Source: an uncultured Methanosarcinales archaeon
Lineage (GTDB): Archaea; Nanobdellota; Nanobdellia; Woesearchaeales; JAGWAF01
Length of the DNA: 64,000 nucleotides
Direction: 5' to 3'
Assembly: GCA_964414985.1 (NCBI GenBank)
Contig: CAYPXA010000007.1
Location: 12,233-76,232, forward strand
Under the pieces are notes generated by a model. It made no database searches, was not told the origin of the DNA, and saw nothing but the letters and a program-made list of their open reading frames with translations. Each line of letters starts with the position of its first letter. The first letter of the stretch is position 1. The position numbers and the translations under genes are program-made. This document shows, piece after piece, positions 8,161-63,726 of this stretch.

Positions 8161-8255
8161 CATTGCCGCCCAGCGCAGTACTCGTTTTCTGACATTCTTC
8201 AAAAGGTGACTCCTGCAAATACGCGATTCAATAATCCTCACGAAGCGCGGCAATG
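8161..8255 (+). repeat. 95-bp inverted-repeat element copy A (subtype 1), MITE-like or sRNA-like
   Basis: cattgccgcccagcgcagtact...ttcttcaaaaggtgactcctg...ttcaataatcctcacgaagcgcggcaatg; the termini CATTGCCGC/GCGGCAATG are reverse complements. Confidence 0.8.
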
Positions 8256-8262
8256 ACCTAGG

Positions 8263-8357
8263 GATTGCCGCCAAGCGCAGTACTCTTTTTTTGAGTTTGA
8301 TTAGCACGTGACTCCTTTGAAGAAGCTGTTTAATATTCTGCACGAAGCGCGGCAATG
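8263..8357 (+). repeat. 95-bp inverted-repeat element copy B (subtype 2), tandem with copy A
   Basis: gattgccgccaagcgcagtact...gagtttgattagcacgtgactcctttgaagaagc...cacgaagcgcggcaatg. Confidence 0.8.
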
Positions 8358-8392
8358 CGACAGTAAGCCTGCATCCCCACTTCTCAATCTGT

Positions 8393-9142
8393 TTGTTCGA
8401 AAACAGCAGATTTATATTCAAACAATGCAGGCTTTTTTGCATGAGCAATGATGAAAAACATAAAACTCCTGAAAAGCACAGCAGAATAATCATGCCAGGC
8501 GAAACTGAAGAGATTGAAGAAGAGCCAACAATGCTTAAAGGGCCTGTTAAGGCAGTTGCTGCCTTGTTCATCCTCATGCTTATTGTGCTTTTTGCAGTGC
8601 CTTACTACAGCATAAAGATGAGCCCTGAGCCCAAAAGCATTCCGACAATTGCAGCAGTCCAGGCGCAGATTCCTGGAATCAGCAGTGCAGAAGGCAGCGG
8701 GTGGGAAAGCATACGCGAGGCTGAAGCTGCACAAAGCATGAATGATCCGAGGATAAAGCAGGCTGCAAATATTATAGCTGCAGAAAGCTGCACTGAATCA
8801 AGGCTGTGCCATGCAAAGGCAATCTATTATTTTGTCAGGGACAGCATAAAATACATTTCAGACCCTCATTCAGGAGAATACATTGCATCGCCTGCAGAAA
8901 CCCTCAAGACAGGAGGAGGGGACTGCGAGGACGGAGCAATACTTCTTTCTGCGCTTCTGGGCGCTGTCGGCATAAAAAATGAGATTGTTTTAATCCCAGG
9001 CCACGCGCTTCTCCGTGCTGAAATTCCTGAAGCGCCGCTCAGACAGAGGGTTGGAAACTGGGTTTACATGGAATGGACGTGCAGGGTATGCAGCTTCGGC
9101 GAGATTCCTTACAGCGACATTGAGGGAGTGGCTGCAGATTGA
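8393..9142 (+). CDS. transglutaminase-like cysteine peptidase superfamily protein, membrane-anchored
   Basis: N-terminal TM helix (AVAALFILMLIVLFAV). Cys-His triad context GGGDCEDGAILLSALLGAVGI...LIPGHALL. An alternative start lies at 8441 (MSNDEK). Confidence 0.5.
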   Translation: MFENSRFIFKQCRLFCMSNDEKHKTPEKHSRIIMPGETEEIEEEPTMLKGPVKAVAALFILMLIVLFAVPYYSIKMSPEPKSIPTIAAVQAQIPGISSAEGSGWESIREAEAAQSMNDPRIKQAANIIAAESCTESRLCHAKAIYYFVRDSIKYISDPHSGEYIASPAETLKTGGGDCEDGAILLSALLGAVGIKNEIVLIPGHALLRAEIPEAPLRQRVGNWVYMEWTCRVCSFGEIPYSDIEGVAAD

Positions 9143-9307
9143 GAGGGTTGCTGCAGATTAAGCTCTTTTCGACTGAAAATAAGCTAAATCCGGCAGAAAA
9201 ACAGTAAGATTTATAAATAAACTCCAACTCTCATGAAATAAATCAATTAATCCCGTTAACTATGGGTTGCGGTTTGAAGGCTATCTTCCGTCGCTCAGAA
9301 TAGGAGG

Positions 9308-10069
9308 GTGAAATTGCACATGGATAAAGAACAATTCGAAAAAACAATACAGCTTGTACGGAAGACTTCTCCTAAAAGGAAATTCAAGCAGAGCTTTGAC
9401 CTCATTATAAATCTCAAGGATGTCAACCTGAAAGACACTTCAAACCAGATTGACTCATTTATCGCACTTCATCATTCAAAGGGAAAGAAGACAAAAATAT
9501 GCGCGCTTGTAGGCCCTGAGCTTTCAGCGCAGGCAAAAGAGGCATGCGACTTCTCTGTTGAGCAGCAGGACTTCATAAAGTATGAGAAGGAAAAGAAGCT
9601 CACAAAAAAGCTTGCAAAGGAATACGACTTTTTCATAGCGCAGGCAAACATAATGCCGGACGTCGCTAAATGCTTTGGTAGGGTTCTCGGCCCAAAAGGA
9701 AAGATGCCAAACCCAAAGGCAGGCTGCGTTGTCCCTCCAAATGCAAACTTAAAGCAGCTTTATGAAAGGCTGAAGAACATGGTGAGGATTGTTGCAAAGA
9801 CCTCGCCTTCAATCAAGGTAATGGTAGGAAATGAGGAGATGAAAGACGAGGAGGTCCTTGACAACATAATGACTGTTTTCAAGCAGGTCCTTGTGCTTCT
9901 TCCTTCAGAAAAGAACAATGTCAAGAACATATTCCTAAAGCTTACAATGGGCAAGGCATTAAAAGTGGGGTCTGAAATGCCGGCTGCTGAATCAGAAAAA
10001 GATGAGAAGCAGCAGAAGCCCAAAGCTGAAAAAAAGCAGAAGGAGCAGAAAGAAGATTCTGAGCAGTGA
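9308..10069 (+). CDS. rpl1: 50S ribosomal protein uL1
   Basis: The N-terminus (EQFEKTIQLVRKTSPKRKFKQSFDLIINL) and overall pattern are L1; a Lys/Glu-rich C-terminal extension is present. The likely start is 9320 (MDKEQ). Confidence 0.8.
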   Translation: MKLHMDKEQFEKTIQLVRKTSPKRKFKQSFDLIINLKDVNLKDTSNQIDSFIALHHSKGKKTKICALVGPELSAQAKEACDFSVEQQDFIKYEKEKKLTKKLAKEYDFFIAQANIMPDVAKCFGRVLGPKGKMPNPKAGCVVPPNANLKQLYERLKNMVRIVAKTSPSIKVMVGNEEMKDEEVLDNIMTVFKQVLVLLPSEKNNVKNIFLKLTMGKALKVGSEMPAAESEKDEKQQKPKAEKKQKEQKEDSEQ

Positions 10070-10071
10070 AA

Positions 10072-10947
10072 ATGGCACAAGTCCATAAGGCAAAAATAGT
10101 AACACAGGCAAAAAAGGATACTGTGAAGAGGCTGGTTGACCTCATTAAAAAGTACCCTATAGTCGGCTCTGTAAACCTTGAGAACCTGCCTGCAGCACAG
10201 CTCCAGAACATGAAGACCAACCTCAGGGGAAAAGTCGAGATACTCATGACCAAAAGAAGGCTCATGAAGATAGCGATTGAAAAGGCAAAGGCAGAAAAGC
10301 CAGGCATCGAAAAGCTCGAGCCATACCTCAAGGGAATGCCAGCGCTTCTATTCACAAACGACAACCCATTCTCATTATTCAAGACTATAAAAAAGAACAA
10401 GTCAACAGCTCCTGCAAAGGCAGGCCAGACAGCGCCTTCAGACATAGTTGTGAAGGCAGGCCCAACATCCTTTGCACCAGGGCCAGTCATCAGCGAGCTT
10501 GCAGGCCTCGGAATAAAGTCCAAGGTTGAAGAGGGCAAGATTGCAATAATGGCAGACACTGTTGTATGCAAGGAAGGAGGAGTAATATCTGCAAAGCTTG
10601 CAGGAATGCTCGCAAGGCTGGGAATAATGCCTATGGAAATCGGGCTTGACCTTGTTGCAGTGCTTGAAAAAGGGGACATATTCACAAAGAGCGTGCTCGA
10701 CATAGACGAGGACAAGTTCATGGCAGACCTGACAAAGGCTGCAAGATGGGCATTCAACCTCTCATGCGAAGCTGCATTCGCAACAAAGGAAAACAGGGAA
10801 TGCCTCATACAGAAGGCATTCATGGAATCAAAAGCAGTTGCGCTTTCGCAGAACATCATGGCAGATGCTGTCGTCGGAGAGCTGCTTGCAAAGGCTGAAA
10901 GGCAGATGCTCAGCGTGAAGGATGAAATGCCTGAAAAGGCAGCATAA
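10072..10947 (+). CDS. rpl10: 50S ribosomal protein uL10 (acidic ribosomal protein P0)
   Basis: [32 protein letters not shown]... matches archaeal P0 and sits between L1 and L12. The ATG is 3 nt after the L1 stop. Confidence 0.8.
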
Positions 10948-11002
10948 GGACTTCAGATTACACTCATTCGAGATTTATAATAATAAATTGGAGGGAGCAA
11001 AA

Positions 11003-11311
11003 ATGGAATACATATATGCGGCAATGCTGATTCACAAGGCAGGCGGTAAGATAGAGGAAGCAACAGTCAAGAAAGTGCTCGAGGCAGCCGGCGCAAAAGC
11101 CGACGAGTCAAGGGTAAAGGCTCTTGTTGCATCTCTTGAGGGCGTTGACATAAACGCAGCAATAGAAAAGGCTGCAATAGCCCAGGCTGCTGCACCTGCA
11201 GCTGCTGCACCATCAGGAAAGCCTGCAGGCGAAGCAAAGAAGGAAGACAAGAAAGAAGAGAAAAAGACTGAAGAGCAGGCTGCTGCCGGACTCGGAGCGC
11301 TGTTCGGATAA
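11003..11311 (+). CDS. rpl12: 50S ribosomal protein P1 (aL12 stalk protein)
   Basis: [19 protein letters not shown]...[18 protein letters not shown], the typical archaeal P1 with a flexible Ala/Glu-rich tail. A GGAGG RBS lies upstream. Confidence 0.8.
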
Positions 11312-11365
11312 ACTTGTTTTTATTTTGGGCGCTTTTAAGCCCCCATTTTAAAGACATGAAATCGA

Positions 11366-12247
11366 ATGTTAAGCGAGGAAGAGAAGAAAGGTTTGAATAG
11401 CCAGGCTAATGAGCTTAACAGCGAAATAAGGGCTTTAAGGGCAGATTTAGGTAATATTAATTCTGAAAAGGAAGCTCTCTTCAGGAAGAAGGAAGAGCTG
11501 AAGAAGCAGATAGCCAGCCTTATCTCCACTGCAAAGAGCAGCAGGACTGAAAGGGACCAGCTGACATCTACTGTGAAGGGCTCCAAGGATGAAAGAAAGG
11601 AGCTTAATGACACCATCAGGGCCAAGATTGAGGAGATAAAGAAGCTTAATGCAGAGAAGGCTGAAATCTCCAAAAAATACGGCATTGAGGGAGACCCTTC
11701 AAGGATAAAGGCTGAAATGGACCAGCTCAACTCAAAGATAGAGACTGAAGTAATGTCATTTGAGAATGAGAAGAAGCTCATGAAGAGGATAAACGAGCTG
11801 AAGAAGAAATACCAGGAGACAAAGAAGCTCAGCGACGTTTTTGAAAAGGCGCATGCGCTGTCAAAGGAGATAGACAGCCTTAAGGCAACACTTGATGACA
11901 AGCACAGGAAGGTGCAGTCAAGCGCAAAGGTAAGCCAGGAAAAGCATGAGGTCATGATGGAAGTCGGAAGGCAGATTGACACTCTCAGGGCAGAGGAGAA
12001 GGCTGCATTCGACAAGTTCAAAGAGAAGAAGGCAGAGTTCAATTCCATCAACGAAAAGCTCCAGGAAAAGCTTGCTGCAATCGCAGGAGTGAATGAGAAG
12101 CTCGGCGAGAGCAAGGTTGAAAGCAAGAGGGAGAAGGATGCGAAGAAGAAGCACACCCTTGCAGAGAAGCAGATGCTTGTGGAAGAAAAAATGAAGAAGG
12201 GCGAAAAGCTGACAACAGAAGACCTTCTCGTGCTTCAGGGAGTTTAG
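11366..12247 (+). CDS. coiled-coil protein (293 aa), function unknown
   Basis: Heptad-rich K/E sequence throughout; no catalytic motif. Confidence 0.4.
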   Translation: MLSEEEKKGLNSQANELNSEIRALRADLGNINSEKEALFRKKEELKKQIASLISTAKSSRTERDQLTSTVKGSKDERKELNDTIRAKIEEIKKLNAEKAEISKKYGIEGDPSRIKAEMDQLNSKIETEVMSFENEKKLMKRINELKKKYQETKKLSDVFEKAHALSKEIDSLKATLDDKHRKVQSSAKVSQEKHEVMMEVGRQIDTLRAEEKAAFDKFKEKKAEFNSINEKLQEKLAAIAGVNEKLGESKVESKREKDAKKKHTLAEKQMLVEEKMKKGEKLTTEDLLVLQGV

Positions 12248-12417
12248 GAAATCTTGTTCTATTTGGTTATATTTAGATAGGTTATATTAAAATTAAAAAG
12301 ATTGACTGCATTCATTGGTGCGCTCTATTGCCAGAAAAAAATAAATTATTATGCGAGTTCTGCAATTTAAATTGCACTTTGAAATCAGAAACAATCAATG
12401 AAATAAAAAAAAACAGC

Positions 12418-12603
12418 TTACTTCCGGGCAACCTTCTCCATGTAGCCGCACTTTCCGCAGGTGGTCCTGTCTTTGTGTGCAGCCATGAAGTATCCTGCAC
12501 CGCATTTTGGGCAGCACTTGTTCTTCCTCTTTGCTGTTTCGCCTTCCTTCTGGTATATCTTCCAGATTTGGTTTGATTTTGATTTCTTGTTTTTTTCAGC
12601 CAT
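12418..12603 (-). CDS. rps27ae: 30S ribosomal protein eS31 (S27ae)
   Basis: 61 aa with C4 zinc ribbon CCPKCG...CGKCG; conserved next to S24e. Confidence 0.75.
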   Translation of the reverse strand: MAEKNKKSKSNQIWKIYQKEGETAKRKNKCCPKCGAGYFMAAHKDRTTCGKCGYMEKVARK

Positions 12604-12619
12604 CTTGAATCACTTGGTT

Positions 12620-12931
12620 TTAAGCAGCCTCGCCTTCAGCTGCAGCTTTCTTCTTTGGCTCTGCAGTGAATTTCTTTGGCTCAAACTTCTTCATGTCCTC
12701 AACAGAATTGTAGATGTATGCGTTTACTTCAGCTTCTGTTGCGCCGAAAGCAGTGTAAATTCCCTTGAGCACAACAGCATTCTCATCTGCCTTTGCCTGC
12801 GAAGCAAGAGCCTTCTTCAGCTCTGCATTTGAAGGGGTTGCTCCCTGGAATGAAATCTGCGCCTTAATCTCCTTTCGAGCCAGCAATGGCTTCTCGTCTG
12901 TATGCGTTATTCTAAGCTCCATTTGTATCAC
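12620..12931 (-). CDS. rps24e: 30S ribosomal protein eS24
   Basis: MIQMELRITHTDEKPLLARKEIKAQI... is a typical S24e N-terminus; about 100 aa. Confidence 0.75.
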   Translation of the reverse strand: MIQMELRITHTDEKPLLARKEIKAQISFQGATPSNAELKKALASQAKADENAVVLKGIYTAFGATEAEVNAYIYNSVEDMKKFEPKKFTAEPKKKAAAEGEAA

Positions 12932-12932
12932 A

Positions 12933-13118
12933 TCACTTTGCTTTTATTGCGTATTCGCCGTTCGCCTTTATGCCGATTTTTGCGGCAATCTGGGAGCGCG
13001 AAAAGTCAACAACTGCAATCCTTCCCTTCCATGACTGGAGAAAGTTTGTGCTTTTGCAGATTGGGCATTCGCCGCCTTCAACAAACAGCTTGCAGTTCTT
13101 GCATATTTTTCTTTTCAT
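12933..13118 (-). CDS. spt4: transcription elongation factor Spt4 (RNAP subunit E'')
   Basis: 61 aa, Zn ribbon CKNC...CPIC followed by WKGRIAVVD; lies in the canonical position between rpoE and rps24e. Confidence 0.7.
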   Translation of the reverse strand: MKRKICKNCKLFVEGGECPICKSTNFLQSWKGRIAVVDFSRSQIAAKIGIKANGEYAIKAK

Positions 13119-13147
13119 CGTAAAACCTCGCTAATCAGAGAAGGCGC

Positions 13148-13768
13148 TCACTTCTTCTTTTTGTCAGCCTTCTGCTCCTTTGGCGCTTTCTGCTCCTTGG
13201 GCTCCTTTGCCTCTTTATCGTCCTTGGATTCCTTTGCGCCGTCATCCTCAACCCAGTCGAGCCTTCCAAGGCCTTCCTGCCTCATTGTAAGCCCTATTTT
13301 TGGGTTTGTAACATCCTTAAATGAAACTGCAATCACCCTTGCCCTGCAGCTGTCGCCAACCTTGAGCATCCTTTTTGTGTCCTTTCCTGAAAGAACTTTG
13401 TCCTTTGCAAAAGACACGAAGTCATCCATTGTCTGCGATATGTGGATCATTCCCTCGATTGGGCCCATTGTTATGAATGCGCCGAAATCAGCAATGTCCT
13501 TTATCCTGCCTGGTATTACCTCGTGCAGTTCAGGCTTGAATGTGATTATCTCAAATACAGTCTCATAGTAGGATGCGCCATCGCCGGGTATTATTACTCC
13601 TTCCTGGACTTCCTTAATCCTCTCAACATCAACAACTATGCCCAGCTCTGCGCTTATGTAGCCGTCATACTTTGACTTGATAGCCTTGAGCACTGCATCT
13701 TCCACGTCCAAATCAAAAAACTTGGGCGGTACTCTGATATGGTCCTTTAGTTCTGCCTTGTAAAACAT
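13148..13768 (-). CDS. rpoE: DNA-directed RNA polymerase subunit E (Rpo7) with KE-rich C-terminal tail
   Basis: N-terminal Rpb7-like domain plus S1 domain (GRIKDIADFGAFITMGPIEGMIHISQ). The C-terminus is a lysine/glutamate-rich extension. Confidence 0.75.
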   Translation of the reverse strand: MFYKAELKDHIRVPPKFFDLDVEDAVLKAIKSKYDGYISAELGIVVDVERIKEVQEGVIIPGDGASYYETVFEIITFKPELHEVIPGRIKDIADFGAFITMGPIEGMIHISQTMDDFVSFAKDKVLSGKDTKRMLKVGDSCRARVIAVSFKDVTNPKIGLTMRQEGLGRLDWVEDDGAKESKDDKEAKEPKEQKAPKEQKADKKKK

Positions 13769-13845
13769 ATTGATAACCCTTTTGCTATTGAAAGGATAAT
13801 GAATCCATTTTTAAAGCTTTTGCTTTTTTAAAGCAGTATTAATGC

Positions 13846-14244
13846 TCAGTCGCCATGGCAGCCAAACATTGAAAGGCTTGACTTTCCCCTAAGTGAGATA
13901 ATCCCCACTCCTTTTTCCCTAAGCCTTTTTTTAAGGCCTGAATCCTGGGTTGCCACAATAGTATCCTTTCCTGCATACTCAACAGTCATGTCATCAACAG
14001 ATAATCCTGCCTTGGATTTTATGATTTCAATGCATTTGTGCCTCACAAGCTGGAGCGCAATTGAGGCAGCAAGCTTGTCCCTTCCCTTCTGCTCCCTTGC
14101 AATCTTCTCAAGCTCGCCTACTGCAGTGTCAAACATTGCTATTTTGTGGGTGAAGCTGCACAGCCTTTCTATCTCTGAGAATATGTCAACCTTGAACTGA
14201 AAGGGTATAAGAAGAAAGTTCGTGTCAAGAATTATTTTTTTCAT
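13846..14244 (-). CDS. PIN-domain protein
   Basis: MKKIILDTNFLLIPFQFKVDIF... gives the first acidic residue (D) of a PIN nuclease. Start trimmed to 14244 because the upstream gene 14249..14629 occupies the rest of the long ORF. Confidence 0.55.
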   Translation of the reverse strand: MKKIILDTNFLLIPFQFKVDIFSEIERLCSFTHKIAMFDTAVGELEKIAREQKGRDKLAASIALQLVRHKCIEIIKSKAGLSVDDMTVEYAGKDTIVATQDSGLKKRLREKGVGIISLRGKSSLSMFGCHGD

Positions 14245-14248
14245 GCAC

Positions 14249-14629: not shown

Positions 14630-14701
14630 AAAACTGATAAGGATTAATCATATTTAAAATTAATGGTCAAGAAAAACCTAAAATTAATGGAATCAACTTG
14701 A

Positions 14702-18617: not shown

Positions 18618-19658
18618 ATGGAAAGCAAGACAGCAGAGAGGATTATTGAAAAAATATGCAGCAGGGCAGAGCCGGCTGGAAAGCATATAGTCTTCAATTC
18701 AGAAAGCTACAGGCCTGCAGAGATACGCCCCTCAAATTTCAAAGCAATCAAAGAATCAAGGTTTAATGGAAGGATTGCATTTGTCGACGGAGGAAACATC
18801 ACTGTGGTTGAGGGGGCTGACTTCTGCCTGCAGGCTGCAAGGATATACCACACAGTTTACTTCTCAAACAAAAGGGTGAGAAGCGGAAGGGATGAGTTTT
18901 TTGCTTTTGCAGGAAAGGAAAAAGGTGAAATCTCAGTTGAGATTATAAGGGCTGAAACTGCTGATGGGCCTCATGAAAATTCTGCAAAAAAAATGTCATT
19001 CAGCCTTTATGACCCATCTCTTGCAACAAAATTCAGCAATGCAAGCCCTGCTGCAGCTGCAAATGCGGCAAGAAAGCTGGCAGAGCTGTCTCATGCGCTT
19101 GATGTTGCAGCAACCCTTGAATCAGGGGATATTCTTGCTCTTGACAGGGATTTGCAGCCTTCAGTCACAGGAGAGGATGAGCTGCTTGCAAAGATAAGGG
19201 CAAAGGCTGCTGAAAAAGGGGTTATTGTGTGCGGAATCTCAAAGACAAGCAGGCTCTGCACAGAAGAGGGCGGAAGCGCGGCAGAAGCTGTGAGAAAAAT
19301 TGAGCCTTCAGGAGAATGGCATTACCATCCTGCATGCATTCCTGAAAAGGAGAATGCTGAAATAATGCTTGCAAAGCTGCACAGCTCATCAAAGTACATA
19401 TTCAGGATTGACACATTCTCCAAATCAGCTGATGAGATTGAGCCTATGCTTTCAGCGCTCAAGGAAAACTCTTCAGACCCTGTTTTTTTTGGGTATCCGT
19501 ACGGAATGATTGAGGCAGACAGATTTGCAAGAGTCAGCAATGAAGAGGCAGAATACATGAAGGTAAGGATTATTGCAAAAGCAGGAAGCAATTCTGCAAA
19601 AATAGCAAGGCTGATGAGCTCTGTTGATGCGCACTCTGTTCTTGACAACATCTCTTGA
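18618..19658 (+). CDS. NurA-like 5'-3' nuclease domain protein (tentative)
   Basis: The ordered motifs IAFVDGGN, ILALDRDL and VCGISKTSRL resemble NurA motifs (aiDGS, llDGSL, SKTS). No herA, mre11 or rad50 are adjacent. Confidence 0.35.
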   Translation: MESKTAERIIEKICSRAEPAGKHIVFNSESYRPAEIRPSNFKAIKESRFNGRIAFVDGGNITVVEGADFCLQAARIYHTVYFSNKRVRSGRDEFFAFAGKEKGEISVEIIRAETADGPHENSAKKMSFSLYDPSLATKFSNASPAAAANAARKLAELSHALDVAATLESGDILALDRDLQPSVTGEDELLAKIRAKAAEKGVIVCGISKTSRLCTEEGGSAAEAVRKIEPSGEWHYHPACIPEKENAEIMLAKLHSSSKYIFRIDTFSKSADEIEPMLSALKENSSDPVFFGYPYGMIEADRFARVSNEEAEYMKVRIIAKAGSNSAKIARLMSSVDAHSVLDNIS

Positions 19659-19669: not shown

Positions 19670-20272
19670 TTAGAAATCAAGGCCTAGCTTCCTTAACGCT
19701 TTTTCAGCCTGCAAAGGGCTTTTGAAAAGTATTGAATGAATGCCCAGCTTTTCTGCAGCATCAGCATTTATTTTCCTGTCGTCTATGAAAACAGCCTCAT
19801 TTGCCTTTATCCCCATTGTTTTGAGAACGTGCCTGAAAACTTTCGGATTCGGCTTCTTCATCCTCATCTGCGTTGAAAGAAACACATAGTCAAAAATGTG
19901 GTAGTTTTCCCTTTCCTCGTTATACCTTTCGTGGGGAGGCACAGTGTCTGAAAGCACTGCAACATCATAATTCTTCTTCAGCTTTCTGACCATCGCCAGG
20001 GTTGCCTTAATCTTCTTTGAGCTTCCGCCGTATTTTCTCGTCCACAAAGACAGGCAGTTTTTTGGAAGCACGCACTTTGTAATCAGCTGGAACCTCCTCC
20101 AGTATTCAGGGTCGTTAATCATTCCTGTTTCGTAAAGCGGCTTAAGCTCTTCCTCTGCATTTTTTGCAGCAGAATAAGGAATTTTGCACGACTTGGCAAT
20201 GTCCTTTACAATAATGTCTTCGGTTTCCGCCTTGCATACTCCGCCATAGTCAAATATCACTGCTTTTATCAT
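19670..20272 (-). CDS. HAD-superfamily hydrolase
   Basis: N-terminal MIKAVIFDYGGV (HAD motif I-like); later ...YDVAVLSDTV and a C-terminal ...VFIDDRKINADAAEKLG motif IV. Confidence 0.6.
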   Translation of the reverse strand: MIKAVIFDYGGVCKAETEDIIVKDIAKSCKIPYSAAKNAEEELKPLYETGMINDPEYWRRFQLITKCVLPKNCLSLWTRKYGGSSKKIKATLAMVRKLKKNYDVAVLSDTVPPHERYNEERENYHIFDYVFLSTQMRMKKPNPKVFRHVLKTMGIKANEAVFIDDRKINADAAEKLGIHSILFKSPLQAEKALRKLGLDF

Positions 20273-37225: not shown

Positions 37226-37319
37226 CATTGCCGCGCTCCGTGAAGATTATTGAACCGCTTCTTCAAAGGAGTCACGTGCAAATCAATGTCCAGAATAAGT
37301 ACTTCGCTGGGCGGCAATG
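37226..37319 (-). repeat. 95-bp inverted-repeat element copy C (subtype 2)
   Basis: cattgccgcgctccgtgaagattattgaaccgcttcttcaaaggagtcacgtgcaaatcaatgtccagaataagtacttcgctgggcggcaatg is the reverse complement of the subtype-2 consensus. Confidence 0.8.
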
Positions 37320-43965: not shown

Positions 43966-44066
43966 GCCCTTATTTTTATTTTTTTAATAATTTATTTCTG
44001 ATTTAATAATTAATTTTCAGCTTGCAGTTCTGGATTTTGTATTTTAAAACTTGGAGTATGGCTCTG

Positions 44067-44160
44067 CATTGCCGCCAAGCGAAGTACTTGTTTTGGAGGT
44101 TCTTCAAAAGGTGACTCCTGTCAAGAAGCGGTTCAATAATCCTCACGGAGCGCGGCAATG
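44067..44160 (+). repeat. 95-bp inverted-repeat element copy D (subtype 1)
   Basis: cattgccgccaagcgaagtacttgttttggaggttcttcaaaaggtgactcctgtcaagaagcggttcaataatcctcacggagcgcggcaatg. Confidence 0.8.
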
Positions 44161-44260
44161 TTCAATCAGTAGTTCATTGAGTTTTGGCTTTAAGCAAAGC
44201 AATGCTTATGCACTGCTCCAAAACATAAGATTTTTAATTACAGGCTTTAATCTTTAGGCT

Positions 44261-53809: not shown

Positions 53810-53948
53810 GCGCTGATAGTCTAATGGCTATGAGTTCTTGATGTTGGCAGTTCAATATCAGAGCTAGCAAATACCGGCCTTCCATAATGGAAAGGAAGCT
53901 AACCATTGACGAGAGCCGATGGTCCGGGTTCGAATCCCGGTCAGCGCA
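53810..53948 (+). tRNA. unusually long (139-nt) tRNA gene with one or more introns; anticodon uncertain (UCC-Gly fold preferred, GUU-Asn possible)
   Basis: Acceptor GCGCTGA (53810-16) with TCAGCGC+A (53941-48). Canonical T arm CCGGG-TTCGAAT-CCCGG. Candidate anticodon arm CCGGC-CTTCCAT... with the intron TAATGGAAAGGAAG complementary to the exon CCTTCCA (BHB-like). About 38 extra nt lie between the D region and the anticodon stem. Confidence 0.4.
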
Positions 53949-53967: not shown

Positions 53968-54309
53968 ATGGACAAGCCAAAAGTATACCTGTTTACGTCT
54001 GCTGGATGCCCGCACTGCCCTCCTGCAAAGAGGTTCATAGCTGAATTTATGCAGGAGAGGAATGATTTTGAACTAATCCATTTGGTTTCAGGGACTTATG
54101 CAGCTTCACAAAAGGCAAAAGAGTTTGATGTCATTTCAGTCCCAACATTTATCATACAGGGCCCTGCAATAGACTACAATATAGGCGCAAAAGGCACTCC
54201 ATCCAAGGAAGCGATGAACAAGTATCTGGACATGGCTTTGGGCACATACAAGGAAAAGGAGAAAAAGCCAAGAGAGTTCGGGATTGGCAGGTTCAAAATT
54301 AAGTTCTAA
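53968..54309 (+). CDS. thioredoxin/glutaredoxin-fold protein
   Basis: Active site CPHC (FTSAGCPHCPPAK); 113 aa. Confidence 0.65.
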   Translation: MDKPKVYLFTSAGCPHCPPAKRFIAEFMQERNDFELIHLVSGTYAASQKAKEFDVISVPTFIIQGPAIDYNIGAKGTPSKEAMNKYLDMALGTYKEKEKKPREFGIGRFKIKF

Positions 54310-54313
54310 GTGA

Positions 54314-54406
54314 TATTGCCGCGCTCCGTTACTATTATTGAACCGCTTCTGGTCAGGAGCCACCCTTTGAATAATCTCAAAAAACGAGTACTGCGCTTGG
54401 CGGCAA
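54314..54406 (-). repeat. 95-bp inverted-repeat element copy E (subtype 1, termini slightly eroded)
   Basis: atattgccgcgctccgttactattattgaaccgcttctggtcaggagccaccctttgaataatctcaaaaaacgagtactgcgcttggcggcaa. Confidence 0.7.
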
Positions 54407-54446
54407 CAAACCAAATCTTTTAATACCCAGAAACAGAATCAGGCAT

Positions 54447-56265: not shown

Positions 56266-56316
56266 AATTCCAAGTTCTTGAAAACCTTTAAATAACAGCC
56301 TTCTTTAAGCCGGAAC

Positions 56317-56982: not shown

Positions 56983-56983
56983 A

Positions 56984-58129
56984 ATGAGGAAAAAGCTGCT
57001 TATCTCAACAGACAGCTTCCTTCCCAGGTGGGATGGAGTTGCAAGATTCCTTTCTGAGATAATACCCCTTCTAAAAGAAAAGTATGACATAACAGTTGCA
57101 GCCCCTAAATTTGAGGGAAAAATACACAGGATTCCTGGCGCAAAAATAGTGAGGATACCTCTTTCAGGCGCAAAATACGGGGATTACCCTCCTGCAAAAT
57201 TCCAGTACCAGAAAATAAACCGCCTCGTCATGGAAAGCGACATAATCTTCAACCAGACATTAGGGCCTATCGGGTTTTTGGCGGCACTTTCAGCAAAAAG
57301 GCACAAAAAGCCGGTTGTTTCATACATCCATTCGATAGAGTGGGAGCTTTTCCCAAAGGCGGTAAAAAATTTCAGGCCGGTTGTAAAGGCTGCAGCTGCA
57401 ATTATGGCAAGGCATGCATACAACAGCTGCACAACAATTATTGTGCCTGCAGATGAGACTGAAGAAAAGATGAGGGCAAACAGGATAAGGACCAAGGCAG
57501 CTGCTGCACGGCTTGGGACAAACACAAAAAAGTTCAAGCCTGCGCCAAGCAAAGAAAAGGCAAAGACTGCAGCAGGCATAAGCCCAAAAACAAAAGTCAT
57601 AGGCTACTGCGGAAGGATTGCAAGGGAAAAAGGGATTCCAACGCTCCTCAAGGCATTCATAAAGGTAAACAAAGAAGACCCTGAAACAATGCTGCTTATA
57701 GTCGGAAGCGGAGTAAAGGATGTTGAAGATATGCTCCGTAAAAGCAAAAATGTGATTGTTACAGGCTCAACAGACAATGTGGTGCCCTACCTGCAGGCAA
57801 TGGATGTTTATGTGCTGCCCTCCCTGACAGAAACAACATCAATCTCAACGCTTGAGGCAATGTCCTGCGGCAATCCAGTCATTGTTACTCCTGTAGGATA
57901 TGCCCAAAAATACGTGAAGGAAGGCAGGAACGGAATGTTTTTCCCGAAAGGGAATGCTGATGCGCTTGCAAAAAAGATAAAGATTCTGCTGGGAAATGAA
58001 AAAATGAGAAAAGAGATGGGCGCAGAGGCAAGAAAGACTGTTGAAAAAGATTTTAGATGGGCAGATACTGCAAAAGCAATAATCCGAGTTCTTGACGCTG
58101 ATTTGAAGAATGCAAAGAAACAGAAGTAG
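56984..58129 (+). CDS. GT4-family glycosyltransferase (glycosyl transferase group 1)
   Basis: C-terminal GT1 domain (LPSLTETTSISTLEAMSCGNPVIVTPVGY...EGRNG). Start is 2 nt after the PIG-L stop. Confidence 0.7.
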   Translation: MRKKLLISTDSFLPRWDGVARFLSEIIPLLKEKYDITVAAPKFEGKIHRIPGAKIVRIPLSGAKYGDYPPAKFQYQKINRLVMESDIIFNQTLGPIGFLAALSAKRHKKPVVSYIHSIEWELFPKAVKNFRPVVKAAAAIMARHAYNSCTTIIVPADETEEKMRANRIRTKAAAARLGTNTKKFKPAPSKEKAKTAAGISPKTKVIGYCGRIAREKGIPTLLKAFIKVNKEDPETMLLIVGSGVKDVEDMLRKSKNVIVTGSTDNVVPYLQAMDVYVLPSLTETTSISTLEAMSCGNPVIVTPVGYAQKYVKEGRNGMFFPKGNADALAKKIKILLGNEKMRKEMGAEARKTVEKDFRWADTAKAIIRVLDADLKNAKKQK

Positions 58130-58158
58130 GATTTGGCGCCAGAACTCAATTCTTTTAA

Positions 58159-58253
58159 CATTGCCGCGCTTCGTGAAGATTATTGAACCGCTTCTTTGCA
58201 GGAGCCACCTTTTGAAGAATGCCAAACAAGAAGTACTCCGCTTGGAGGCAATG
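58159..58253 (-). repeat. 95-bp inverted-repeat element copy F (subtype 1)
   Basis: cattgccgcgcttcgtgaagattattgaaccgcttctttgcaggagccaccttttgaagaatgccaaacaagaagtactccgcttggaggcaatg. Confidence 0.8.
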
Positions 58254-58256
58254 CAG

Positions 58257-58351
58257 CATTGCCGCGCTTCGTGAGAATTATTGGACCGATTCCTCAAAGG
58301 AGTCACGTGTTAATCAAACTCAAACAAGAAGTACTGCGCTCGGCGGCAATG
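58257..58351 (-). repeat. 95-bp inverted-repeat element copy G (subtype 2), tandem with F
   Basis: cattgccgcgcttcgtgagaattattggaccgattcctcaaaggagtcacgtgttaatcaaactcaaacaagaagtactgcgctcggcggcaatg. Confidence 0.8.
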
Positions 58352-58382
58352 CTGGAATCCATAACTTAGAAATTTCAGAGCT

Positions 58383-58973
58383 TTATTTGTAGTACTTCTT
58401 TTCCTTGTCGAGCTTCAGCACGCTTAACATCCTTGACTTTATGTCCTCCCTGCCTTCAACTTCAAGCGCCCTGTCAATCTGCTCCCTTACTGTGCCTGCC
58501 GAAACTATATAGTCCTGCACGCTCTTTTCCTTCTTTGATGCTGAAACATGCATTTCTGCTGCCTTGAACTTGTGCTCTATCCCCTCATCAGCCATTCCGA
58601 GATTTTTTCTCATAATGTTTCTGTCTGCAAACTCGCGCTCTGCCTGCGCCTGGCTTTTTTCATCCTCTGCCATAAGCTTCTTCATCTTTCTTTCTTCTGC
58701 AGCAAGAAATTCCTGTATGCCTATGCCTTTTGCAGGATTGGCTGAAGGCAAAGTGTCTTTTTCTGCAGAATCCCCTGGCTTATAGTCAGCTTTTGCAGAA
58801 AGCGCTGCAATCTCGTTTTTTGTCTTTTCGGAAAGCGATGAAAAGTCAGAAAGGTCTTTTTCAAGGTCTATTTTTATTTCATCTTTTGGAAGGCTTGCGT
58901 AGTCAAACTTGGACATAAGCCCTATCAGCTCGTCTTTTGTCCCTTCCTTGAGCTCTTTGAATTTTTTTTGCAT
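58383..58973 (-). CDS. hypothetical charged protein (196 aa)
   Basis: K/E-rich ORF with no motif. Confidence 0.35.
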   Translation of the reverse strand: MQKKFKELKEGTKDELIGLMSKFDYASLPKDEIKIDLEKDLSDFSSLSEKTKNEIAALSAKADYKPGDSAEKDTLPSANPAKGIGIQEFLAAEERKMKKLMAEDEKSQAQAEREFADRNIMRKNLGMADEGIEHKFKAAEMHVSASKKEKSVQDYIVSAGTVREQIDRALEVEGREDIKSRMLSVLKLDKEKKYYK

Positions 58974-59057
58974 GCCAGTTGTCCAATAGGCTCAGAAGTT
59001 TATAAAATTATGCTGAAAACAGGCTTTGCAGGATTCAGAACCTCGTATTAAAGCTGT

Positions 59058-59369
59058 TTACTGCTTGAACCTGTGCTGGATTTCCCTTTCAATGTTGTTG
59101 AATGACTTGTGGAGCGTCCTTGCAAGGTCCCAGTCAGAGTCGCTGTTCGACTCAAAAACCTGCGTTGGCGCCAGCGCCCTAACGTGTATTGAGTACTTTT
59201 TCCTCTGGCCGTCCTTTCCGTGTGTCTTGACATGAATAGCAAGGGATGTTATGTTGTTTAATGCCCTCTTTATCTTGTCATAGTACTCTGCGGACAGCTT
59301 TTTCACAGTCTCCTGCTCTTCTTCAAGCAGCTCATTCACTCCTATAAATTGGATTACTTCGGTTTTCAT
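59058..59369 (-). CDS. ribosome hibernation factor-like protein (HPF/RaiA/YfiA family), tentative
   Basis: 103 aa; the layout MKTEVIQFIGVN...LAIHVKTHGKDG..KYSIHVRA...WDLARTLHKSFNNIEREIQHRFKQ parallels bacterial HPF (…VVLKVEKVTH…LHVNGGEIHASA…YAAIDGLIDKLARQLTKHKDKL). Confidence 0.4.
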   Translation of the reverse strand: MKTEVIQFIGVNELLEEEQETVKKLSAEYYDKIKRALNNITSLAIHVKTHGKDGQRKKYSIHVRALAPTQVFESNSDSDWDLARTLHKSFNNIEREIQHRFKQ

Positions 59370-59446
59370 GGCATTTATCCTGCTTGTCTGCGTTTATATA
59401 TTTTTCCATCAAAAGCATTAAATACCTAAATCCCCCCTCTTGGCTT

Positions 59447-60103
59447 ATGGCATTAATTGCAGGCATTGAGGAGGCTGGAAGGGGTCCTGTCATAGGCCCG
59501 ATGGTCATGTGCGGAGTGCTTATCGATGAGGAAGACCAGGAAAAGCTTAGGTCTATAGGCGCAAAGGACTCAAAGCTCCTTACTCCAAAGACAAGGGAGA
59601 TGCTTTTTGGCCAGATAACAGCAATGGTCAAAAAATATGAGCTGGTTGTTGTCAGCCAGAAGGAAATTGACAATGCGCTTCTTGACCCTGCACTAAACCT
59701 CAACAAGCTTGAGGCAATTACCTCTGCAAAAATCATTAACAAGCTGAATCCTGACAAAGTCCTTGTTGACTGCCCAAGCAACAACACTAAGGCGTATGCA
59801 TCCTATTTAAGGGAGCATCTTGCAAACAAGAGCATGGAGATTATTGCAGAGCACAAGGCTGATGTCAAATACCCTGTTGTTTCTGCAGCTTCAATCCTTG
59901 CAAAGGTCACAAGGGACAGGGAGATAGAAAAGATAAAGGAAAGGATAGGCATTGACTTCGGCTCAGGCTATCCTTCAGATGAGAAAACCCAGCTTTTCCT
60001 AAGGAAGAACTGGGACAGGTTTCCAGAGATTTTCAGGCAGACATGGGCGTCCTACAAGACAGTTGCCTCAAAAAAGCAGCAGAAAAGCCTCGGCGAGTTC
60101 TAA
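59447..60103 (+). CDS. rnhB: ribonuclease HII
   Basis: MALIAGIEEAGRGPVIGPMV contains the catalytic DEAGRGP motif. Start trimmed to the Met at 59447. Confidence 0.8.
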   Translation: MALIAGIEEAGRGPVIGPMVMCGVLIDEEDQEKLRSIGAKDSKLLTPKTREMLFGQITAMVKKYELVVVSQKEIDNALLDPALNLNKLEAITSAKIINKLNPDKVLVDCPSNNTKAYASYLREHLANKSMEIIAEHKADVKYPVVSAASILAKVTRDREIEKIKERIGIDFGSGYPSDEKTQLFLRKNWDRFPEIFRQTWASYKTVASKKQQKSLGEF

Positions 60104-60152
60104 ACATTATTGCAAAATATTTATATATGGATTGGCTATATTCTAAAGCAAA

Positions 60153-63100
60153 GTGACGAAGATAACCAAAATAGTAATGAACGGATTCAAGTCTTTCGGG
60201 AAAAAGACTGAAATTCTTTTTGGAGACCAGTTCAATGTAATCCTTGGCCCGAACGGCTCCGGAAAGTCAAACGTGCTTGATGCGCTCTGCTTTGTTCTTG
60301 GAAAAGGCTCTGCAAAAGGCCTTAGGGTTGAAAAAAGCTCAAACCTTATTTACAACGGCGGAAAGACCAAAAAGCCTGCAAAAGAGGGCGAAGTCAGCAT
60401 ATTCTTTGACAACACAAAAAAGATTTTTCCGACAGAGGAGGAGTCAGTCAAGATTTCCAGGATAATAAAGCCGAACGGCCAGAGCAAGTACAGGATAAAC
60501 AACAAGACAAGGACAAAGCAGCAGATACTTGACCTTTTGAGCCTTGCAAGGATAGAGCCTGACGGCTACAACATAATACTTCAGGGAGACATAATCCGGT
60601 TTGTTGAGATGCATCCTGTTGAGAAGAGGCAGATGGTTGAGGAGATTGCAGGAATCTCTGTTTACGAGGACAAGAAGCAGAAGGCGCTTGGCGAATTAGG
60701 CAAGGTTGACGAGAAGCTGGGAGAGGCTGAAATAGTCCTCAAGGAAAGGCAGACCTACCTCAAGGAGCTGAAAAAGGACAGGGACCAGGCTCTCAAGTAC
60801 AAGACGCTTAATGATCAGATAAAGCAGAACAAGGCATCATACCTCAAGAGGCAGCTTGACAGGAAGGAAGATGCATCCTCAAAGTTTCAGGAGAAGATTG
60901 ACAGGAAAAAGTCAAAGCTTGACCATTACAGGGAGCAGAGCTCAAAGCTGAAGGAGGCAATTGCGAAGAGGAAGGAGGAAATAAAGAGAATCTCCAAGGA
61001 GGCTGAAGAGAAGGGGGAAGTTGAGCAGGTTGCACTCCAGAAGGAGATTGAGAAGCTTAGGATAGATCTTGCAACTTCCAAGACAAGGATATCCAGCTGC
61101 AGCAATGAGATTGCAAGGATAGGCCAGAGGAGAAGCCAGCTTTCGCAGAACCTTTCAGAAATTGAGGAGAAGATAAGCTCGCTTACAGCGCAGAAGTCAG
61201 ACCTTGAGGGAAGAAGGTCTGCCATAGACGAGCAGAGGGAGAAGCTCGAAAGGACAATTTCAGAATTCAAGAAGAAGAACAAGATGGGGGATGACACAGA
61301 CCTGAGCAAGGAGCTTGACGAGCTTGACAGGAAGGCTGATGAAAAGCAGTCTGAAGTCCAGAAGCTCAGGGAGGCCCAGCAGGAGCTGCTTAGGGAGCAG
61401 GACAGGCTTGGAGTCCAGATACAGATGATGGACGAGAGGATTGCAAAGGTCCTTGAGGTCGAAAAGGCGCACAAGGCAGAGCTTGACAGCCTGAAGCAGA
61501 AGAAATCAGAGTTCAAGAAGGCGACAGTCGAGCTCAACGAGCTTCTCAATAGGGACAGCGAGCTTGCTGCAGGCATTGCAGAGGAGAGGCAGAGGCTCAT
61601 AAAGCTGACAGAAGACATTGCAAGGCTTGAGGCAAAGAACATAAGCGCCAAGGAGAAGGCTGCAGAAAGCATTGCAGTAAAAAAGATTCTTGAGAACAGG
61701 TCTAAATTTGGAGGGCCTGTCTACGGCACTGTCAGCGAGCTTGGAGAAGTTAATGCAAAATACTCTGATGCGCTTGGCGTTGCTGCAGGCAGGAAGATAA
61801 ACAGCATTGTTGTCGAGAATGACTCTGTTGCTGCAAAATGCATAAAATTCCTGAAAGACTCAAAGCTGGGAGTCGCATCATTCCTGCCATTGAACAAGAT
61901 AAAGCCTGAAGATGAAAAAAAATCCTTAGTCAAGCCAGGCCCTGGAATACACGGCACTGCCATAAGCCTTATTGAGTTTGACCCTAAATTCAAGAGCGTG
62001 TTCAGGTATGTTTTTGGAGACACTCTTGTTGTGGACAGCATTGAGGTTGCAAGGAAAGTGGGGATAGGCACTGCAAAAATGGTGACTCTTGACGGAGACC
62101 TTGCAGAGCAGAGCGGAGCAATGATTGGCGGATACAGGCAGAAGAAGGCTGTTTCAGTGTTCAGGGAGAAGGAGCTTTCAGGAGACATTGAAAAGGTCAA
62201 TGCAAAGATTTCAGATTCAAGGTCATCACTTTCATCGCTTGAGAAGCAAAAGCAGGAAAACGAGGACAAAATAACCTCTTTGAGAGAGTTCAAGGCAGGG
62301 CTTGAGGGAGACATAATCAAGGTTGAGAAAGGGCTTCATCTCGAGTCAGGCGACCTTGAGGCTTCAAAGGCAATAAAGGAGCAGTCCCAGAAGAGGATTG
62401 CAGAGGTCTCAAAGCAGATTGATGATGTAATGTCCAATATTTCTGAAATAAATCGGGAGCTTGCCTCGCTGAAAATTGCAAAGCAGAAGCTGAAAGACCA
62501 GTTCAATGACCTTAGGAAGCCTACGCTCATAGCAGAGCTGAACTCATTTGAGGAGAAGAAGAGGCAGCTTACCGAAGAGCTTCTAAAGATGGAATCAGAA
62601 TGCAAGAACATTGACATGCAGGTAAAGGAAATCCTTGGAAGGGACAGGGACAATACTGCAAGAATCCTGAAGGACCTTGACAGGGAGGAAGACGCATTTT
62701 CTCACGAGTCTAAGGACCTGGAGGATATAGTCTCGCAGAAGGAGTCAGTCCTTAAAGGAATGGATGCAAAGCAGAAGGAGTTCCAGACAAGGTTCAAGGG
62801 CCTTTTTGAGTCCATCAACCAGCTGAATGAGAAGAATTCAGAGTCTGAAGCTGAGCTTTACAAGGTTGATGATCTAAGCAGGAAGGAGGAGCTTGAGATG
62901 AACACGCTTTCACTCGAGCAGGCAAAGGTCAGGGCAGAGCTTGCAGGCATAAAGGAAGACTTTGCGCAGTACGAAGGAATTGAGCTTGACATGCAGAAGC
63001 CTGAAGAGCAGCTCAAGAAGGAGATTTCAGACTTTGAAAAGATGAAGGAGAACATCGGCTCTGTCAACATGAGGGCTCTTGAGATTTACGAGTCTGTCGA

Positions 63101-63644
63101 AAAGGAGTACAACAGCCTGCTTGAGAAGAAGGAAAGCCTGAAGAAGGAGAAGGATGACGTTGTTGGGCTTATTGCAGACATTGACGGCAGGAAAAAGGAC
63201 CTTTTCATGAATACTTATAATATTGTCTCAAAGAATTTCCAGGACATATTCTCATCGCTTTCCAAGAAGGGAGAGGCGCATCTCACTCTTGAAAACACTG
63301 AAAGCCCATTCGACGGAGGCCTTAATGTCAATGTCAAGCTTACAGGCAGCAAGTTCCTTGACATAAGGAGCCTTTCAGGAGGGGAAAAGACTCTTACAGC
63401 CCTCGCATTCATATTTGCAATACAGGAGCACGAGCCTGCATCATTCTACATACTTGACGAAGTTGACGCTGCGCTTGACAAGCACAACAGCGAGAAGCTT
63501 GCAAAGCTCATAAGGAAGTATTCAGACAGGGCGCAATACATCATAATCTCGCACAATGACTCAATAATATCTGAAGGCGACACGCTTTATGGAGTCAGCA
63601 TGGACGAGACAAGCACCAGCAATGTTGTCAGCCTCAAGATTTAG
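60153..63644 (+). CDS. smc: chromosome segregation protein SMC
   Basis: 1163 aa; Walker A (GPNGSGKSN), long coiled coils, a central hinge (GTVSELGEVNAKYSDALGVAAG), a C-terminal signature (LSGGEKTLTALAFIFAIQ) and Walker B (FYILDEVDAALD). Confidence 0.9.
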   Translation: MTKITKIVMNGFKSFGKKTEILFGDQFNVILGPNGSGKSNVLDALCFVLGKGSAKGLRVEKSSNLIYNGGKTKKPAKEGEVSIFFDNTKKIFPTEEESVKISRIIKPNGQSKYRINNKTRTKQQILDLLSLARIEPDGYNIILQGDIIRFVEMHPVEKRQMVEEIAGISVYEDKKQKALGELGKVDEKLGEAEIVLKERQTYLKELKKDRDQALKYKTLNDQIKQNKASYLKRQLDRKEDASSKFQEKIDRKKSKLDHYREQSSKLKEAIAKRKEEIKRISKEAEEKGEVEQVALQKEIEKLRIDLATSKTRISSCSNEIARIGQRRSQLSQNLSEIEEKISSLTAQKSDLEGRRSAIDEQREKLERTISEFKKKNKMGDDTDLSKELDELDRKADEKQSEVQKLREAQQELLREQDRLGVQIQMMDERIAKVLEVEKAHKAELDSLKQKKSEFKKATVELNELLNRDSELAAGIAEERQRLIKLTEDIARLEAKNISAKEKAAESIAVKKILENRSKFGGPVYGTVSELGEVNAKYSDALGVAAGRKINSIVVENDSVAAKCIKFLKDSKLGVASFLPLNKIKPEDEKKSLVKPGPGIHGTAISLIEFDPKFKSVFRYVFGDTLVVDSIEVARKVGIGTAKMVTLDGDLAEQSGAMIGGYRQKKAVSVFREKELSGDIEKVNAKISDSRSSLSSLEKQKQENEDKITSLREFKAGLEGDIIKVEKGLHLESGDLEASKAIKEQSQKRIAEVSKQIDDVMSNISEINRELASLKIAKQKLKDQFNDLRKPTLIAELNSFEEKKRQLTEELLKMESECKNIDMQVKEILGRDRDNTARILKDLDREEDAFSHESKDLEDIVSQKESVLKGMDAKQKEFQTRFKGLFESINQLNEKNSESEAELYKVDDLSRKEELEMNTLSLEQAKVRAELAGIKEDFAQYEGIELDMQKPEEQLKKEISDFEKMKENIGSVNMRALEIYESVEKEYNSLLEKKESLKKEKDDVVGLIADIDGRKKDLFMNTYNIVSKNFQDIFSSLSKKGEAHLTLENTESPFDGGLNVNVKLTGSKFLDIRSLSGGEKTLTALAFIFAIQEHEPASFYILDEVDAALDKHNSEKLAKLIRKYSDRAQYIIISHNDSIISEGDTLYGVSMDETSTSNVVSLKI

Positions 63645-63680
63645 TTCTGGTTTCTGCACGGAGCTCGATTCAAGTTCAGT

Positions 63681-63726
63681 CATTGCCGCCCAGCGCAGTA
63701 CGCATTCTCACGAAGCTCGAGCAATG
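63681..63726 (+). repeat. internally deleted (46-bp) copy H of the inverted-repeat element
   Basis: cattgccgcccagcgcagtac|gcattctcacgaagctcgagcaatg keeps both terminal arms and lacks the central roughly 50 bp. Confidence 0.65.

Follow-up and report, generated by a model that had tools for sequence, protein, structure and literature searches.

We examined a repeat that occurs eight times in a 64 kb stretch of archaeal DNA (contig CAYPXA010000007.1; hereafter, the window) as seven full copies of 94–95 nt and one 46 nt internal-deletion derivative. On balance, the repeat is probably a non-autonomous mobile DNA element that is defined by its ends and mobilized in trans, working in the manner of a MITE (miniature inverted-repeat transposable element). 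The repeat is multi-copy, its ends are conserved and its interiors variable across genomes, copies are present in some genomes and absent from the corresponding sites of others, and a long variant has moved as a unit. The repeat forms a family that has not been described before and whose insertion signature is a variant one. We did not file it as a canonical MITE because a direct target duplication is lacking at a recently changed locus.

Copies of the repeat in the window

The forward orientation of the repeat was defined as CATTGCCGCCMAGCGNAGTACT ... CACGRAGCGCGGCAATG. The 9-mer CATTGCCGC was observed 13 times in the window against an expectation of 0.46, the 21 nt pattern of the left end 8 times against 0.01, and the 19 nt pattern of the right end 7 times against 0.01. 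These counts are far beyond chance and indicate that the eight-copy family is real. Its density in the window is approximately 125 copies per Mb (8 copies in 64 kb), and a profile search of the window with the copies gave no additional ones.

An earlier reading made from the letters alone (the sequence-only reading) had listed eight copies, all of which are present and shifted by at most 2 nt. Its claims that the copies occur in both orientations, always between genes, and twice as head-to-tail tandem pairs also hold: four copies are on the + strand (c1, c2, c4, and c8) and four on the − strand (c3, c5, c6, and c7), all are intergenic at 4–102 nt past a stop codon, and the pairs are c1–c2 (7 nt spacer) and c7–c6 (3 nt spacer). 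The near-identical termini that it described are there, but c5 in fact spans 54314–54408 with the ends TGTTGCC...GGCAATA, and c2 begins with G, not C. The 46 nt derivative c8 had been said to retain both arms; its left end is good, but its right arm is degenerate (CTCGAGCAATG).

The interiors fall into two subtypes, A (c1, c4, c5, and c6) and B (c2, c3, and c7). The first pair consists of c1 (8161–8255, + strand, 95 nt), located 36 nt past the UppS stop codon, and c2 (8263–8357, + strand, 95 nt), which begins GATTGCC. Copy c3 (37226–37319, − strand, 94 nt) lies between the convergent UPF0147 and MscS genes, c4 (44067–44160, + strand, 94 nt) lies 100 nt upstream of the alanyl-tRNA synthetase (AlaRS) gene and has the motif AGTTYTGG on both sides (44026 and 44180), and c5 (− strand, 95 nt) lies 4 nt past the stop codon of a thioredoxin-like gene. 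The first member of the second pair is c7 (58257–58351, − strand, 95 nt) and the second is c6 (58159–58253, − strand, 95 nt), in which position 8 is T (CATTGCCTCC). The derivative c8 (63681–63726, + strand), made up of the left 21 nt and the degenerate right end, lies 37 nt past the SMC stop codon. Each tandem pair combines one copy of subtype A and one of subtype B, in opposite order between the two pairs. Copies of the same subtype at different loci are 85–86% identical, whereas the partners within a pair are 77–79% identical, which indicates that the pairs are not recent local duplications.

Conserved ends and variable interiors

Eleven full copies, from the window and from the related loci L049, L050, and L006 described below, were aligned. 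The left 22 nt and the right 17 nt are nearly invariant, and the interior is variable. The terminal inverted repeat is perfect over 9 bp (CATTGCCGC/GCGGCAATG) and extends to approximately 15 bp when mismatches are allowed. The conserved subterminal sequences are longer than the 9 bp repeat and are asymmetric. At position 8/90 the two ends change in concert, which we counted in favor of a mobile element.

Presence and absence of copies in related genomes

Genomes (one per species) and metagenomes were scanned once each with an exact pattern. Because this pattern matches only four of the eight window copies, the scans underestimate the true distribution of the element. The genome scan gave one true relative, L005 (also L049; CAZLVM010000002.1, a metagenome-assembled genome in GTDB), which is syntenic with the window at 14.7–24 kb with approximately 55–65% amino acid identity. 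The metagenome scan gave L006, an archaeal contig with multi-intron tRNAs in which the element is the only detectable similarity to the window. In L005 and L006, the same ends (CATTGCCGCCMAGCGNAGTACT ... CACRRAGCGYGGCAATG) are found at a spacing of 95–96 nt, and the interiors bear no relation to those of the window copies. In viral contigs, the scans yielded nothing, or matches with one end only. A link to viruses or plasmids was considered and dropped: the 85 matches to an arms-only pattern were chance matches, and the phage and plasmid collections gave nothing.

The sequence-only reading had proposed that sister genomes be searched for empty sites, and orthologous sites that lack the element were found in both directions between the window and its relatives. 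The window genes at 18618–19658 and 19670–20272 are 12 nt apart, and their orthologs in L049 flank a copy. Conversely, c3 of the window lies at a site where, in the syntenic relative L040, the UPF0147 and MscS genes directly adjoin each other. At a third site, L051/L052 (NurA 65% identical) have a 58 nt spacer with no copy, whereas L049 and L050 carry copies there. No copy was present in approximately 70 kb from four relatives whose AlaRS is 68–74% identical.

Insertion polymorphism between close strains, which the same reading had raised as a question, was observed between L049 and L050. Their flanking DNA is 98.8–99.1% identical and their NurA protein is identical, and they nevertheless differ in copy content. 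In the spacer after NurA, L049 has one copy of 96 nt (L049E), whereas L050 has a long form of 130 nt and, separated from it by the spacer GCTGC, another, distinct copy of 95 nt (E2). In the long form, the inner right end is degenerate (CACGTAGCGCAGTATCG), and a 34 nt extension beyond it closes with a perfect right end. This arrangement was found again at the end of contig L049 (14339–14426). This recurrence at a second locus indicates that a unit bounded by the outermost ends was propagated.

In the Logan short-read contigs of the window organism, breaks coincide with copies: L009 ends 20 nt into c1, and L047 spans from approximately 8 nt past c4 to the inside of c5. A census of MITEs includes one Woesearchaea genome with 105 MITEs per Mb (PMC11602168). 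Our literature search returned these end sequences in no relevant context and nothing specific on repeats of Woesearchaeota.

Flanking sequences and arrays

Perfectly complementary flanks of 3–4 nt border five of the 11 full copies: CAG/CTG at c7, AGT/ACT at L049E, CAC/GTG at L006 (complementary over 4 bp), TGC/GCA at L050 E2 (also 4 bp), and AGC/GCT at the L050 long form. All four full copies from outside the window are among them. The probability that this arises by chance is approximately 4e-7 by our own calculation with 1/64 per copy. Standard transposition by a DDE enzyme does not explain such flanks. The simplest reading is that integration takes place, with no staggered cut, at the center of a short palindrome; alternatively, a hairpin intermediate would copy a few flanking bases. 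Together with the missing target duplication, the complementary flanks point to an integration mechanism other than classical DDE transposition.

Intact neighboring copies stack head-to-tail with spacers of 3–7 nt, as in c1–c2, c7–c6, and the L050 pair, in which the forward order is E2 and then the long form. Sequences resembling decayed copies adjoin several intact ones. The segment 37186–37225 (− strand) is a probable decayed partial copy that follows c3 directly, head-to-tail and with a 0 nt spacer; it contains AGTTTTGG and is identical at 22 of 40 positions in register (p approximately 0.008). A weaker candidate is 8358–8402 (+ strand), possibly a decayed third copy, which is head-to-tail after c2 and identical at 21 of 40 positions in register at an offset of 5 (p approximately 0.025). 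Directly upstream of c8, a degenerate fragment resembling a right end (CACGGAGCTCGATTCAAG), preceded by AGTTCTGG, was recognized by eye at 63651–63680 (+ strand). The motif AGTTYTGG occurs seven times in the window, five of them within 45 nt of a copy (37202, 44026, 44180, 58139, and 63643) and always in the orientation of the element; these motifs near copies are probably remnants of decayed copies.

When the flanks of L049E, L050, and L006 are joined, they recall motifs of the element by eye (GCAGT^ACTCTTGTT, AAGC^GCAGTA, and TAGCAC^GTG). Nested insertion into older copies was considered, and a profile search of the joined flanks detected only the intact neighboring copies; nested insertion stays a hint. 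The flanks contain a single direct repeat of 10 nt, that of L049E; its offset is 10 nt, and it falls inside a tract of 25 nt tandem units. Units of approximately 25 nt (TTGGCAGYATYGGCTATT...) lie beside the copies at 4888–4960 of L049 and 4054–4100 of L050, just upstream of the promoter-like sequence AGAAAAGCTTAAATAA of a gene for a 109-aa protein. They may be decayed fragments of element ends.

Proposed mechanism and points against it

We propose that an enzyme encoded outside the window would recognize both ends, that is, the 9 bp CATTGCCGC/GCGGCAATG repeat together with the conserved asymmetric subterminal sequences, and would move or copy whatever lies between the outermost ends. Integration would occur with no staggered cut and would thus leave no direct target duplication. 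It would favor the centers of short palindromes and sites beside resident copies, and insertion beside resident copies would give rise to head-to-tail arrays that later decay. The interior would be free to diverge, and the ends would be kept because only copies with intact ends would go on propagating. A role of the hairpin at the host level, such as formation or stabilization of mRNA 3′ ends, is possible as a secondary effect.

Several observations weigh against a mobile element of this kind. Direct target-site duplication was not found: the longest direct repeats in the flanks are 3–7 nt and lie within the chance distribution. There is none even at the polymorphic L049/L050 locus, where the flanks of the L050 copies are complementary rather than direct, and the complementary flanks of the five copies differ in sequence from one another in every case. 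The 22 nt and 17 nt ends are near-identical between genomes that are otherwise dissimilar, which selection on a host function could also explain. All three one-sided transitions in the terminal helix retain G·U pairing on the forward strand, which fits an RNA or a single-strand hairpin as well. The difference between L049 and L050 may in part be due to recombination or conversion among resident copies rather than to new insertion. No transposase or recombinase was found among the scanned ORFs of the window, in the L049 gene table, or at the other loci. We know of no parent insertion sequence for the repeat, and the exact-pattern scans of genomes, metagenomes, and viral contigs (one each) gave no full-length element with these ends.

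RNA structure and coding capacity

The 9 bp terminal helix is 94.9% paired across the 11 full copies. Position 8/90 is mostly G-C, with G·U in L006 and the long form, A-U in L050 E2, and a mismatch in c6; in c5 the terminal pair changes from C-G to U-A and the second pair from A-U to G·U. These co-changes are compatible either with base pairing or with the symmetry of an inverted repeat. Beyond the terminal helix, RNAalifold found no interior helix common to the copies, and the folds of individual copies are inconsistent with one another. Single copies are not significantly more stable than shuffled sequences (z-scores of −0.9 to −1.7).

Searches of the window, the c1–c2 region, and L006 against Rfam, at the gathering score and at permissive E-values, gave no family, and only tRNAs reached the gathering score. 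The best match over c1–c2 had 12 bits against a gathering score of 60. The sequence-only reading had held that an Rfam hit would weaken the mobile-element interpretation; no match was obtained over the copies. Its other option, a structured small RNA, gains little support from these results: the data back only the terminal helix, the interior lacks a conserved structure, and no family in Rfam fits.

Among known RNA motifs, K-turn, C/D, H/ACA, sarcin-ricin, and bulge-helix-bulge motifs were compared with the alignments by eye, and none fits. The boxes that a guide RNA would have are lacking, both RUGAUGA/CUGA pairs in register and an ACA following the stem, and the 3 nt bulge is followed by two Watson-Crick pairs and not by the G·A pairs of a K-turn.

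The open reading frame (ORF) calls over the copies had been described as artefacts, and this agrees with our analysis: 8014–8577 (−), 57845–58306 (−), 54136–54414 (−), and 44051–44257 (+) overlap real genes or lack a conserved frame.

Alternative explanations

A structured RNA or hairpin with a function for the host is, in our estimate, an unlikely explanation. It would be a 3′-untranslated region (UTR) stabilizer, a terminator or insulator, or a small-RNA gene, whose core, a terminal helix with a purine-rich internal loop, would bind a conserved protein and would have spread by duplication or been kept by selection. Such a role would accord with ends that are nearly invariant over three genomes while the interiors differ, with the well-paired terminal helix and its one compensatory change from G-C to A-U with G·U intermediates (and the C-G to U-A change in c5), and with the position of the copies shortly past stop codons. 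RNAalifold proposes a 3 nt bulge, two short helices, and a putative G·A/N·R/A·G loop, and the element of L006 lies inside a highly structured GC-rich region. However, no interior helix is conserved, and the proposed pairs beyond the terminal helix carry no information because they never vary. An apparent covariation of N16/R85 fails in L050 E2 (A/A), and neither the fold energies nor Rfam favor a structured RNA. The orientation of the copies relative to the upstream gene is mixed, and their positions are not conserved between relatives. In addition, c2 and c5 contain runs of 6–7 T. In archaea, such runs tend to end transcription, so that forward transcripts would tend to terminate within these copies. 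We give next to no credence to a short peptide encoded on the reverse strand (LPRFV..I..RSH.L...K.VLR.AAM). As read directly from the sequences, five copies (c1, c2, c5, c6, and c7) are open throughout in reverse frame 3, but the 94 nt copies c3 and c4 shift the frame relative to the 95 nt copies in the last third, L006 has stops in all reverse frames, there is no consistent start or stop codon, and the long ORFs that cover the copies run antisense across real genes; peptide coding was rejected on these grounds.

Two other explanations keep the repeat mobile or recombining and assign it to a different machinery. A hairpin element of the REP/REPIN or IS200/IS605 type, processed in single-stranded form by an HUH (Y1) transposase, for example a RAYT, is improbable. 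HUH enzymes of this kind insert with no target duplication, and none was seen here; moreover, the terminal stem can form in single strands and tolerates G·T wobble variants, roughly half of the copies have a CWG trinucleotide no more than 1 nt 5′ of their left end, and the copies are intergenic, multi-copy, and clustered in tandem. Against this, on reading the sequences there is no separate subterminal hairpin at each end, the CWG flank is found in only about half of the copies, GTAG- or CGTC-type tags are absent, and the pairs are head-to-tail rather than inverted doublets of a short unit. Copies use both strands within one replichore, across which cumulative GC skew climbs monotonically. No Y1 transposase was found in any locus scanned. 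Very improbable, in turn, is a recombination-site module like integron attC or Xer/dif, in which the joined ends (GCGGCAATG-spacer-CATTGCCGC) would serve a site-specific recombinase as a palindromic core, with circular units integrating beside resident copies. This would account for dissimilar copies in head-to-tail arrays of the same orientation with no duplication, for the palindromic junctions between copies, and for imperfect palindromes with conserved ends and variable centers downstream of genes. However, the arms of intact neighbors are separated by 3 to 7 nt, and those at the probable decayed copy after c3 by 0 nt, a variation that recombinases of fixed geometry should not tolerate. 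The neighbors are syntenic housekeeping genes and not cassettes, the copies occur in both orientations, and there is neither a GTTRRRY-type core nor an integrase nearby.

Comparison with known systems

MITEs are defined as non-coding, multi-copy elements shorter than 500 bp, with terminal inverted repeats of approximately 4–30 bp and with flanking direct repeats in young copies, that are mobilized in trans (PMC10969869). The repeat described here is small (94–96 nt; long form, 130 nt), has eight copies in 64 kb and no consistent ORF, carries terminal inverted repeats, and shows evidence of mobility in its filled and empty sites; its young copies have no direct target-site duplication. The MITE option of the sequence-only reading was supported as regards mobility (empty sites, polymorphism, and the recurring long variant), but the repeat is not a textbook MITE in view of the missing duplication and the inverted-complement flanks. 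Prokaryotic MITEs such as SM1–SM4 of Sulfolobus, the Correia elements of Neisseria, and RUP of pneumococci are likewise small, non-coding, multi-copy, and intergenic with terminal inverted repeats, and the repeat shares with them conserved ends with variable interiors, presence/absence polymorphism, and nesting or tandem clustering. It differs from them in the lack of a target duplication, in the inverted-complement flanks of five of the 11 copies, in a perfect repeat of only 9 bp, and in its asymmetric subterminal sequences.

REP, BIME, and REPIN sequences with RAYT resemble the repeat in being intergenic, often just past stop codons, clustered, and hairpin-forming, in lacking a target duplication, and in possibly affecting mRNA 3′ ends. 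In contrast, a REP is a palindrome of 20–40 nt, whereas the unit of the repeat, at 95 nt, is approximately 3 times longer and has no GTAG/CGTC tag, its doublets are head-to-tail, and neither RAYT nor any Y1 transposase domain was found among the ORFs scanned. Elements derived from IS200/IS605 (PATEs) have a separate subterminal hairpin at either end, a fixed target of four or five nucleotides 5′ of the left end, and a strand bias. The repeat departs from them in its ends, its CWG flank, and its use of both strands in one GC-skew domain, as set out above.

IS1397 and ISKpn1 target the loops of palindromic units, and members of the IS110/IS1111 family target REPs; these are autonomous insertion sequences with transposase genes and specific targets. 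The repeat resembles them in that its insertion is apparently centered in short palindromes, with little or no duplication and near other repeats, but the five palindromic hexamers that its flanks form (AGT/ACT, CAC/GTG, CAG/CTG, TGC/GCA, and AGC/GCT) all differ. Integron attC sites, too, are imperfect palindromes; they are similar in size, are conserved at the ends and variable in the center, and are arranged head-to-tail at gene 3′ ends. Unlike attC sites, the repeat is accompanied by neither gene cassettes nor an integrase and has no R/L core motifs; its ends are CATTGCCGC/GCGGCAATG, it occurs in both orientations, and its neighbors are conserved, syntenic housekeeping genes.

It is possible, albeit doubtful, that the repeat represents an unrecognized type of archaeal mobile element. 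Such a type would combine integration at palindrome centers with no staggered cut, or a hairpin intermediate that copies 3–4 flanking bases, with head-to-tail pile-up and with ends conserved across DPANN lineages, and its enzyme might not be a classical transposase. Genomes of DPANN archaea are tiny and compact, and the mobile DNA in them has been little studied. At approximately 125 copies per Mb, the family fragments short-read assemblies, creates intergenic differences between strains that are 99% identical, and may modify housekeeping genes at their promoters or 3′ ends. In practical terms, the conserved ends can serve to track these lineages and to flag breaks in assemblies, and the responsible enzyme, if found, could reveal a new recombinase-substrate pair.

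Host and gene neighborhood

The host of the window is a DPANN archaeon, Woesearchaeota-like and with a small genome. The best matches of the window AlaRS are 74% identical and belong to proteins named Candidatus Woesearchaeota or Nanoarchaeota. The record of L049 is titled ‘uncultured Methanosarcinales archaeon’, and the named relatives of its NurA-like protein are in Woesearchaeota and Nanoarchaeota. Given these relatives and the synteny with the Woesearchaeota-like window, the L049 record is probably mislabelled.

Approximately 50 of approximately 75 candidate ORFs in the window were scanned, which comprised roughly every ORF of at least 160 aa. All ORFs with a Pfam match encode housekeeping or ordinary cellular proteins, including UppS, ribosomal L1 and L10, CCA-adding enzyme, PPDK, aRF1, AlaRS, Dus, RNase HII, and SMC; approximately nine of the scanned ORFs have no Pfam match. 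No transposase, integrase, or recombinase domain was detected among the ORFs scanned, in line with the earlier statement that no transposase is present in the window. By gene arrangement, two of the loci lie between convergent genes, four between co-directional genes, and none between divergent genes. A terminator-like hairpin (AAGCCTGCAT...ATGCAGGCTTTTTT) lies at 8366–8437, immediately past the c1–c2 pair, and the pair may therefore sit in the 3′ UTR of UppS.

Other features

In L006, a GC-rich region of approximately 317 nt (573–889) is closed by a 17 bp stem and contains the 95 nt element. The region has a minimum free energy z-score of −6.9 and matches nothing in Rfam. A multi-intron tRNA gene flanks it on either side, and each of these two genes is followed by TAACGAAGTG. 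The region could be another element or a structured RNA. Relatives of L006 were sought for an element-free form of the region; the only close contig begins 15 nt past the element and is thus uninformative on insertion.

The window also contains a tRNA gene with an insertion of approximately 65 nt at 53810–53948, which was missed by ARAGORN and scored 40.2 bits with the Rfam model; it is probably an archaeal intron-containing tRNA. A gene-free stretch of approximately 1.4 kb (3868–5247) stands out in the otherwise compact genome. It includes ATGGGAATGA repeats at 3917–4094 and phased A-tracts (AAAAAAAGCnn, period 11/22) at 4114–4430, and possible interpretations of it are bent DNA, an origin, or a regulatory region.

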